From Escherichia phage EcF-vB, in the sequence record PV683228.1: 64,000 bases of DNA; one strand, 5' to 3'. Positions 40,520 through 40,600 of the stretch are shown here, one piece after another. Position 1 is the first letter of the stretch. Every line of letters starts with the position of its first letter. Made by a program: the position numbers and the translations under genes. The notes beneath the pieces were generated by a model. It was not told the DNA's origin. It searched no databases and worked only from the letters and a program-made list of their open reading frames with translations.

Positions 40520-40600
40520 ATCTTAAGTGCTACCATTACACCAACTCGACCTCTGCCGAGTGAAGGAATCGAACCTTCTCCTTTTCTTTACCGAGAAATA
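40520..40600 (-). other. permuted tRNA-like element: T-arm and 3' acceptor strand directly followed by matching 5' acceptor strand and D-arm
   Basis: sense strand reads GAAGG-TTCGATT-CCTTC ACTCGGC A ga G GTCGAGT TG GTGT AATGGTA GCAC; 3' strand ACTCGGC pairs with 5' strand GTCGAGT (6 WC + 1 G.U); flanking 8-bp complementary segments AGACCGTT / AACGGTCT. Confidence 0.4.

Follow-up and report, generated by a model that had tools for sequence, protein, structure and literature searches.

A probable Y-RNA-type tRNA mimic in the tRNA array of Escherichia phage EcF-vB and its Ro60-like neighbor

The DNA considered here is a stretch of 64,000 nucleotides (nt) of Escherichia phage EcF-vB (PV683228.1), referred to below as the window, which is of the Felixounavirus genome type. 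In its tRNA array, the spacer between the tRNA-Asp and tRNA-Lys genes harbors an element that is probably the gene for a non-coding RNA of the Y-RNA type, approximately 130 nt in length, which mimics tRNA and is the probable partner of a Ro60-like protein, the gene for which is situated 1 kb upstream on the same strand. Most likely, it is the top half of a tRNA that is mimicked, and the RNA belongs to a family that is widespread among phages and has so far gone uncatalogued.

Position and fold of the element

The window is a large near-perfect inverted repeat with arms at approximately 37414-49235 and 52041-63517 around a center at approximately 50640. The dense tRNA array occupies 36343-41472 on the minus strand and starts again from 60579 on the plus strand; tRNA-gene sense is the minus strand in the left arm and the plus strand in the right arm, and a left-arm position equals 100932 minus the right-arm position. 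The element is present in each arm and is composed of the following parts (MFE, minimum free energy; CM R1, the covariance model described below):

40503-40632, minus: element, left-arm copy, approximately 130 nt, with the tRNA-mimic domain; 98.3 bits with CM R1, E 5e-17
60300-60429, plus: element, right-arm copy, identical in sequence to the left-arm copy; MFE fold
40500-40636, minus, and 60296-60432, plus: element with the outer 4-bp helix TTAC/GTAA
40622-40629, minus, and 60303-60310, plus: 5' strand of the terminal stem, AGACCGTT, pairing with 40505-40512
40614-40621, minus: single-stranded conserved motif TACAGCAA, immediately next to the 5' stem strand; predicted to be recognized by the protein
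40583-40598, minus, and 60334-60349, plus: V (variable-arm-like) hairpin TTTCT-CGGTAA-AGAAA of the MFE fold
40562-40578, minus, and 60354-60370, plus: T-arm GAAGG-TTCGATT-CCTTC, with the equivalents of T54, T55, C56, R57, A58, and G53:C61
40544-40561, minus: acceptor-like hairpin of 7 bp, one of them U-G, consisting of ACTCGGC (60371-60377 in the right arm), the loop AGAG, and GTCGAGT (60382-60388)
40527-40543, minus: equivalents of U8 and G9, then D-arm GTGT-AATGGTA-GCAC with the equivalents of A14, G18, and G19 (right arm 60391-60405, preceded by T, G)
40504-40512, minus: 3' strand of the terminal stem, AACGGTCT (60420-60427, plus), with a conserved unpaired G; the 3' end in the family is C[U/A]G

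The V hairpin, conserved only within Felixounavirus and Suspvirus, is linked to the T-arm by AGGA, and 14 nt, TTAAGATGATAAAC, lie between the D-arm and AACGGTCT. The unbiased MFE fold of the element consists of exactly the terminal stem and the V, T, acceptor-like, and D hairpins (-34.3 kcal/mol, z -2.6). An original prediction, made from the letters of the window, had described a tRNA-like element with its 3' half before its 5' half, a canonical T-arm, a normal D-arm, complementary acceptor strands (ACTCGGC/GTCGAGT), and a flanking 8-bp stem. Reading in the tRNA sense and the MFE fold bear out this topology and all of these parts, including the 8-bp stem. The span of 40520-40600 given for the element was too short, and three nt (GAG) rather than two follow the discriminator-like A. 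The argument that the element is conserved in both arms holds insofar as the two copies are identical; as the window is one large near-perfect palindrome, the arms do not provide independent evidence.

The order of the parts could be read as that of a true circularly permuted tRNA gene, the stem of which would be cut, the ends ligated into an anticodon loop, and the acceptor opened. Such genes were reportedly described by Soma and colleagues in 2007 in Cyanidioschyzon merolae, and others are said to occur in algae and archaea. As in those genes, the 3' half (T-arm, 3' acceptor strand, and sometimes CCA) precedes the 5' half and the termini pair; the acceptor strands are complementary, relatives of the element encode N-CCA after the 3' acceptor strand, and tRNA-Trp is missing from the left arm, where the 26 tRNAs at 36343-41472 (minus) cover every other amino acid. 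However, the element has no anticodon stem-loop, and no CCA anticodon is present at the right place. Neither ARAGORN nor the Rfam tRNA model calls a tRNA in the native sequence; ARAGORN does not find one in the re-joined halves either and, when introns are allowed, forces a 'tRNA-Phe(aaa)' with an arbitrary 39-nt intron. The terminal stem is a continuous 8-bp helix and not a bulge-helix-bulge, the splicing endonuclease for which is archaeal and eukaryal and is not known from bacteria. The site at which the ends would be joined is dominated by the conserved UACAGCAA, and the identical stem and motif are found without any tRNA part. A permuted tRNA gene is thus a very improbable explanation, and the product of the phage element, which lacks the anticodon arm, the bulge-helix-bulge, and a host splicing endonuclease, would not be a tRNA. 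The stem had been proposed to be the processing stem of a permuted pre-tRNA; because it is a continuous helix joined to UACAGCAA and also stands alone, it is better seen as a functional module. The accompanying statement that the permuted topology is not known from phages does not hold, as YrlA-type Y RNAs of this topology have been reported beside the Ro60 gene of 22 phages (Chen et al. 2014, PMC4201824).

Conservation of the fold among phages

The region was matched in 256 phage records, essentially all of them of Felixounavirus and its relatives, and in approximately 240 of these the whole tRNA-Asp/tRNA-Lys spacer is covered at 95-99 % identity. It is hardly annotated: a few records carry a hypothetical open reading frame (ORF), and one, Escherichia phage REP7 (OQ174506.1), has a spurious 'tRNA-Thr (GGT)' of 131 nt (L118 207-337), which stretches from the interior of the short unit C described below as far as the element's 3' acceptor strand and is evidently a miscall of the intron mode, made with the T-arm of the element.

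An unbiased comparison is offered by the syntenic orthologues in three genera of the Ounavirinae, which were collected by sequence homology alone. The T-arm is invariant among them, while the acceptor-like stem reads ACTCGGC/GTCGAGT in Felixounavirus, ACACGT/GCGTGT in Suspvirus, and ACCCTTC/GAAGGGT in Mooglevirus. As the helix stays paired through complete replacement of its sequence, the element is not a scar. Of the original pair of alternatives, a novel RNA or a rearrangement scar, the RNA is therefore retained and the scar is not. A scar made up of the functionless remnants of two decayed tandem-duplicated tRNA genes has two points in its favor: tandem tRNA duplication is the simplest way to arrive at a T-arm, 3' acceptor strand, (CCA), spacer, 5' acceptor strand, and D-arm in this order, and the tandem tRNA-like units of normal topology in locus L041 have a junction that imitates the element. 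As a description of the present state a scar is hardly credible. The element is kept in the approximately 240 Felixounavirus genomes and in two further genera, with the whole acceptor-like helix compensatorily replaced; it also occurs in very distant phages, and the nucleotides for tertiary contacts are largely conserved across the family. Tandem duplication is thus plausible as the evolutionary origin only.

More distant relatives were sought in 80 loci encoding relatives of the Ro60-like protein (39-99 % identity), using a descriptor and then a covariance model (CM R1) built from an N-padded, hand-registered seed alignment, as plain MAFFT misaligned the variable regions of distant seeds. The full-architecture descriptor gave 25 instances in the 80 loci versus 0-3 in shuffled copies, which places the element, a conserved and unannotated RNA, above noise. 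CM R1 yielded 150 matches at E<=1; those in the 80 loci are all on the gene strand and those in the window on the tRNA-sense strand of each arm. Besides Ounavirinae and several uncultured phages, full-length elements with the tRNA-like domain are present in two isolated phages: FBKp34 of Klebsiella, where the element (89 bits) is located between the Ro60-like gene and a tRNA array, and Krypton555 of Mycobacterium, where it (61 bits) follows the Ro60-like gene at a distance of 100 nt.

In 13 distinct family members, 98.7 % of the cells are paired, versus 65 % upon shuffling and approximately 42 % upon sliding, and double-sided changes are seen in 19 of the 23 pairs, including all 7 acceptor-like ones, counts that lean towards structure because the distant seeds had been picked by the descriptor and then the model, both of which reward pairing. 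Six of the seven terminal-stem pairs examined covary family-wide, and RNAalifold predicts the same 23 pairs from the 13 members. The fold is under purifying selection, for which the unbiased evidence comes from the syntenic orthologues and from the strand and position bias given below.

The nucleotides that shape the tRNA elbow are conserved as well. The equivalents of U8 and G10 are invariant in 13/13 members, as are those of T55, C56, A58, and G53:C61; T54 is a G in one member, G18G19 is missing in one (L071 6575-6710), and A14 is kept in most. The equivalents of the Levitt pair covary (G15:C48 in four members, A15:U48 in two). An encoded discriminator and CCA (N-CCA) start the acceptor-like loop after the 7-nt 3' strand in 7/13 members, namely, L015/L016 (GCCA), L021 4748-4885 (CCCA), L021 4374-4513 (GCCA), L041 7150-7293 (ACCA), L071 7434-7536 (GCCA), L108 (GCCA), and the doubtful L041 6943-7070 junction (ACCA); Felixounavirus has AGAG or AGAT in its place. 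The presence of N-CCA points to a tRNA origin of the element, and perhaps the mature RNA would have an opened, CCA-ended acceptor. An 'anticodon-like' stem, seen in some members (L021, FBKp34, and as 4 bp in Felix), is not general and was omitted from the model.

Two candidates were set aside. L041 6943-7070 is probably not a permuted element; it appears to be the junction of two tandem tRNA-like units of normal topology, and the counts given above are not materially changed by it. The insertions in KhF3 and GEP101, considered as a trace of an ancestral intact tRNA, lie outside the element and revealed no such tRNA.

The terminal module and the Ro60-like protein

The terminal stem and its motif form a module in which exactly 8 paired nt, usually A-G-N6, immediately precede U[A/U]CAGCA[A/C], and the 3' strand ends with C-[U/A]-G. 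Without a tRNA part, it also stands alone in units of approximately 60-75 nt, which are present in the window as well as in Listeria P100 and Campylobacter CP30A. Those of the window are:

40644-40723, minus, and 60209-60288, plus: short unit C, stem and TACAGCAA without a tRNA part, immediately upstream of the element
41075-41139, minus: short unit B, between tRNA-Met and tRNA-Asn
41228-41306, minus: short unit A, between tRNA-Glu and tRNA-Met

A plain descriptor, consisting of the motif, then 7/7 complementary bases, then G, gave 106 matches on the gene strand versus 1 on the opposite strand; the stem is present at 52 % of the gene-strand occurrences of the motif versus approximately 3 % expected by chance. 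A unit lies within 2.5 kb of the Ro60-like gene in 53/80 loci and, in many distant phages, at most approximately 100 nt from its stop codon. The 37 distinct stem sequences have G-C as their second pair in 33 cases. The four paralogues of Ounavirinae have a further, outer helix of 4 bp, which covaries among them (GAGC/GCUC, UGAC/GUCA, UUGC/GCAA, and UUAC/GUAA); an AGA/G internal loop lies between it and the inner stem.

The 106:1 strand bias argues for a function at the level of RNA rather than DNA, which bears on the possibility that the element is a small ORF or a recombination or binding site. An ORF of 39 amino acids (aa; 40536-40655, minus) and one of 41 aa on the other strand do overlap the element, the AYO145A record annotates a coding sequence of 85 aa on the opposite strand, and T-loop homology mediated the deletion in locus L011 discussed below. 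Across the three genera, however, the orthologous elements are 134, 130, and 127 nt long, with differences that are not multiples of 3, the overlapping ORFs are not conserved in the window, and variation tracks base-pairing and not codons. On account of the non-triplet length differences and the structure-following variation the small-ORF reading is rejected, and there is very little chance that the feature is coding or acts at the DNA level.

The protein next to which the units are found is encoded by the following features:

41638-43053, minus: Ro60-like gene, 471 aa, Pfam DUF2828 and DUF7788, von Willebrand factor A (vWA) domain with the DxSxS motif of the MIDAS, an adhesion site that depends on metal ions; the product is the predicted partner of the RNA
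41499-41619, minus: two sigma-70-like promoter matches (consensus matches only) between the Ro60-like gene and the first tRNA
58941-60106, plus: right-arm Ro60-like gene with a frameshift near 59878, in which a deletion joins ...EFNQVDG to the 3' end of tRNA-Asp

An AlphaFold2 (AF2) model made from 40 homologues (predicted local distance difference test 89, predicted template modeling score 0.89) was compared with the Protein Data Bank (PDB) by Foldseek. The 11 best matches are all Ro60/TROVE chains, matched over the full length with E values of 4e-8 to 2e-7 and template modeling scores of 0.39-0.65 (nine at 0.53-0.65); they include 1yvr, 2i91, 2nvo, 9l5y, and 9kop, structures of Xenopus Ro60, Deinococcus Rsr, and the Ro60 of Thermus phage phiLo. 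The next PDB matches are isolated vWA domains only. The model has the Ro60/TROVE architecture, with a helical part at residues 28-263 and a vWA alpha/beta fold at 274-464, and DxSxS (D279-S283) is invariant in the 40 homologues. PHROG 850 bears the name 'RNA-binding protein', and mycobacteriophage records call the protein a 'Ro-like RNA binding protein'. It occurs in >700 isolated phage genomes, ranging from mycobacteriophages to Listeria, Campylobacter, and Vibrio phages. The protein is the positional orthologue of gp130 of phage Bas63, which has a Ro60-like structure, is encoded directly upstream of tRNAs, and counters the ppl defence; the authors speculated that some of the downstream 'tRNA genes' may be Y RNAs, none of which was identified (preprint 10.1101/2024.10.10.617714).

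In Ounavirinae and in the more distant phages alike, every full-length element lies close to the gene for such a DUF2828/DUF7788 protein and shares its strand. As the module of stem and UACAGCAA is the sole constant neighbor of the protein across phages of very different hosts, it would be the docking site of the phage Ro60-like protein. Alternatively, the element might be a structured RNA of the tRNA operon that acts independently of this protein, either as a processing or stability element for RNase P, E, or III or as a small RNA or decoy bound by a host factor. The element is embedded in a polycistronic tRNA array and directly followed by a hairpin of approximately 25 bp (z -4.9), and a tRNA-like shape alone would attract tRNA-processing enzymes. 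Yet stem and UACAGCAA are kept in phages of Proteobacteria, Actinobacteria, Firmicutes, and Campylobacter, hosts with different factors, and many such loci have no tRNA array; their one constant neighbor, the DUF2828 Ro60-like gene, shares their strand and is often no more than approximately 100 nt away. A protein-independent RNA is therefore unlikely, albeit less so than the other alternatives discussed.

Two side observations concern the same loci. In Listeria phage P100 (L084 1426-1977), a match to the ROOL RNA (86 bits versus a gathering score (GA) of 99.1) lies approximately 1 kb upstream of the Ro60-like gene, and in an uncultured phage (L079 7760-8252) a tmRNA (80 bits) lies approximately 1.4 kb downstream of it. 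On the basis of these matches, large structured or tRNA-related RNAs cluster at Ro60-like loci.

Relationship to known RNAs and proposed role

In YrlA, a helix of the RNA ends that contains the Ro60 site encloses V, T, acceptor-like (AS), and D parts, and the gene is located near that of Ro60 on the same strand; in the YrlA of Mycobacterium smegmatis, RNase P cuts the 7-bp AS, to which CCA is then added (PMC4201824). The phage element resembles YrlA (RF02553) in several respects. A Ro60-type gene is found on its strand at a distance of no more than a few kb, and the MFE fold, the covariation, and the alignment of relatives support the order V, T, acceptor-like, D inside a 5'/3'-end helix. It has equivalents of U8, G18G19, and the T-loop nucleotides and a covarying Levitt pair, its acceptor-like helix is 7 bp long, as in the RNase P-cut RNA of M. 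smegmatis, and each locus encodes several Y-like RNAs, of which a single one has a full tRNA mimic (compare YrlA/YrlB). Three relatives score 38.2, 39.6, and 38.3 bits with the Rfam YrlA model (E 1e-5 to 8e-7); the match spans the whole model in L021 and FBKp34 and model positions 24-84 only in Krypton555. In L021, the T, AS, UA linker, D, and short anticodon-like stem are matched and the Ro-binding part is not. The tRNA domain of the element is akin to that of YrlA.

The phage family differs from YrlA in its partner, a DUF2828/DUF7788 protein that is Ro60-like only by fold, in the U[A/U]CAGCA[A/C] that abuts the 8-nt stem strand and the conserved 3' CUG, in the location of the element inside a phage tRNA array, and in that the module of related phages carries tRNA parts in other topologies. 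In L041 (6893-7010 and 7024-7140), two tandem RNAs of normal order (5' acceptor strand, D, hairpin, T, 3' acceptor strand, NCCA) have a hairpin CAAACU-GAYA-AGUUUG with UUCAGCA in place of the anticodon arm. In L071 (7325-7432), stem and motif surround a D-arm, an anticodon arm UCAGU-CUUUUAA-ACUGA (Lys-UUU-like), and a T-arm. As the module carries such varied tRNA parts, these loci fit a modular design of a 'Ro-like handle plus tRNA bait'.

Apart from the pairing-rewarding choice of distant seeds, a number of observations weigh against a Y-RNA-type partner of the Ro60-like protein. The GNCGAAN0-1G motif of YrlA is absent, the 5' strand of the phage RNA being AGACCGTT-TACAGCAA; the Felix copy is not matched by the Rfam YrlA model at E<=10, and none of the relatives reaches its gathering score (GA 69 bits). 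The element may work like a YrlA Y RNA, by analogy, and yet it does not have the Ro-binding motif or a score above the Rfam threshold, both of which define YrlA. A Pfam scan of the protein yields DUF2828 and DUF7788 and no TROVE, for which reason it is called Ro60-like and not an orthologue; phmmer and a profile of 40 sequences retrieved no Ro60 from the PDB, only noise, so that the relationship to Ro60 is one of predicted fold. The strict descriptor finds no unit in 27/80 loci. Finally, in an SP116-like phage (L011 7457-7580; IMGVR_UViG_2706796742), recombination between the two T-loops has joined the T-arm of the element to the T-loop and 3' end of tRNA-Lys, with loss of the acceptor-like hairpin, the D-arm, the long hairpin, and the 5' part of tRNA-Lys. 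As its 3' part has been lost there naturally, the element is dispensable at least in this phage.

A similar pairing of protein and RNA is known from Thermus phage phiLo (PMC12135203), which encodes a Ro60-fold protein and, beside it, the small RNAs Yrl1 and Yrl2, each with a 5'-3' stem and an internal loop; Yrn1 of D. radiodurans is comparable. Unlike the element described here, the Yrl RNAs of phiLo have a CGAA motif and no full tRNA mimic, and the Ro60 of phiLo belongs to the canonical TROVE type; in Yrn1, the orientation of the T and D parts is the opposite one. The phiLo Ro60-Yrl complex binds the host polynucleotide phosphorylase (PNPase), and hijacking of PNPase or counter-defence has been proposed for it (PMC12135203). 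The phage family is not present in Rfam 15, and the literature on DUF2828/PF11443 or TROVE in combination with phage yielded no prior description of the RNA.

We infer the binding of the protein, the processing of the RNA, and its biological role as follows. The RNA would be transcribed together with the tRNA array and released by tRNA-processing nucleases, and RNase P might nick it at the 7-bp acceptor-like helix. The Ro60-like protein would then associate with it in a ribonucleoprotein (RNP), by way of the stem/UACAGCAA module and the 3' C-U-G. A second module inside the terminal helix, comprising V, the T-arm, the loop-closed acceptor-like helix, and the D-arm, would be the tRNA mimic, with U8, G10, A14, G18G19, and the T-loop residues building the elbow. 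In this way, the RNP could present a tRNA-shaped surface to a host factor that recognizes tRNA, such as an exonuclease, a tRNA-modifying or repair enzyme, or a tRNA-targeting defence, and serve as a tether or decoy in the counter-defence of the phage. Such a role would be consistent with the action of gp130 against ppl and the binding of host PNPase by phiLo Ro60-Yrl. The analysis provides specific candidate RNAs for the orphan protein of the gp130 type, one tRNA mimic and three short units, all located in unannotated spacers of the tRNA array, and an RNP of the Ro60-like protein thereby becomes directly testable in Felix O1-type phages, which are classical typing and therapy phages. The binding module of the RNA family would be unlike that of all described Y RNAs, and tRNA mimicry of the Y-RNA type would be modular and recurrent.

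Among all Rfam families, the short units match one only, Dictyostelium Class I RNA (RF01414). There are nine such matches of 15-29 bits (best E 5.8e-4 across all families), none of which reaches the gathering score of 41.5 bits; the units matched include A, B, and C of the window, L033 4727-4788, L087 4532-4594 and 4621-4671, and L084 2621-2676. Class I RNAs are an abundant, developmentally important, 20-year-old orphan class, and DUF2828 is present in eukaryotes and viruses. The Class I consensus has an AAG start, a covarying stem of approximately 6 bp, an invariant G paired to the C of a 3' CUGU, the motif CCUUACAGCAA adjoining the 5' strand of the stem, and a length of approximately 60 nt (Kjellin et al. 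2021, PMC7919456). The phage short units share this layout, with (CC)UUACAGCAA beside the 5' strand, the G-C pair, the 3' CUG, the size, and a variable remainder. They differ in that the G-C pair and the motif are closer together by one nt in the phage stem, which amounts to a register shift of 1 nt, and in that they lie inside a tRNA operon or beside a phage gene, whereas Class I RNA genes are eukaryotic with promoters of their own (DUSE). Class I RNAs are reported to bind the RNA recognition motif protein Rnp1A and to be absent outside Dictyostelia (PMC7919456), and no Class I RNA has a tRNA-like domain. It can be put forward, tentatively and with the balance against it, that a stem with the invariant G-C, UUACAGCAA, a variable insert, and a 3' CUG is the universal ligand of DUF2828-type Ro60-like proteins and that Class I RNAs are its eukaryotic members. 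If so, they would be the 'Y RNAs' of a DUF2828 RNP, and there would be a hint at the role of DUF2828 proteins in plants and amoebae; a shared protein partner as the cause of the resemblance would give a first mechanistic handle on Class I RNAs. The variable insert of the phage RNAs carries tRNA mimics in at least three topologies, i.e., permuted, normal with the module replacing the anticodon arm, and a D-anticodon-T body inside the stem.

Some further features of the window remain to be listed. The right arm mirrors the left one in degraded form: small indels occur where segments join, the Ro60-like gene is frameshifted and truncated, and a deletion of approximately 1060 nt has removed tRNAs Asp, Tyr, Asn, Met, Glu, and Pro. 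Normal genomes of the Felixounavirus group do not have such an inverted repeat, which has the appearance of a fold-back artefact of assembly or reads or of a defective genome. Two adjacent perfect hairpins, GAGAGGGCT-ATTT-AGCCCCTC and CCTTAAAGA...TCTTTAAAGG, lacking a U-tract, lie between tRNA-Asp and short unit C (60155-60209, plus; 40723-40777, minus). The hairpin directly 3' of the element, before tRNA-Lys, occupies a stretch of approximately 150 nt (60428-60580, plus; 40352-40504, minus), in which a perfect long-range stem of approximately 25 bp, ATTATCTTTGTAGATAAG.../...CTTATCTACAAAGATAAT, is formed around small hairpins (-46.3 kcal/mol, z -4.9). Its sequence differs in Suspvirus and Mooglevirus, and it could be a processing site of the RNase III type or another structured RNA.

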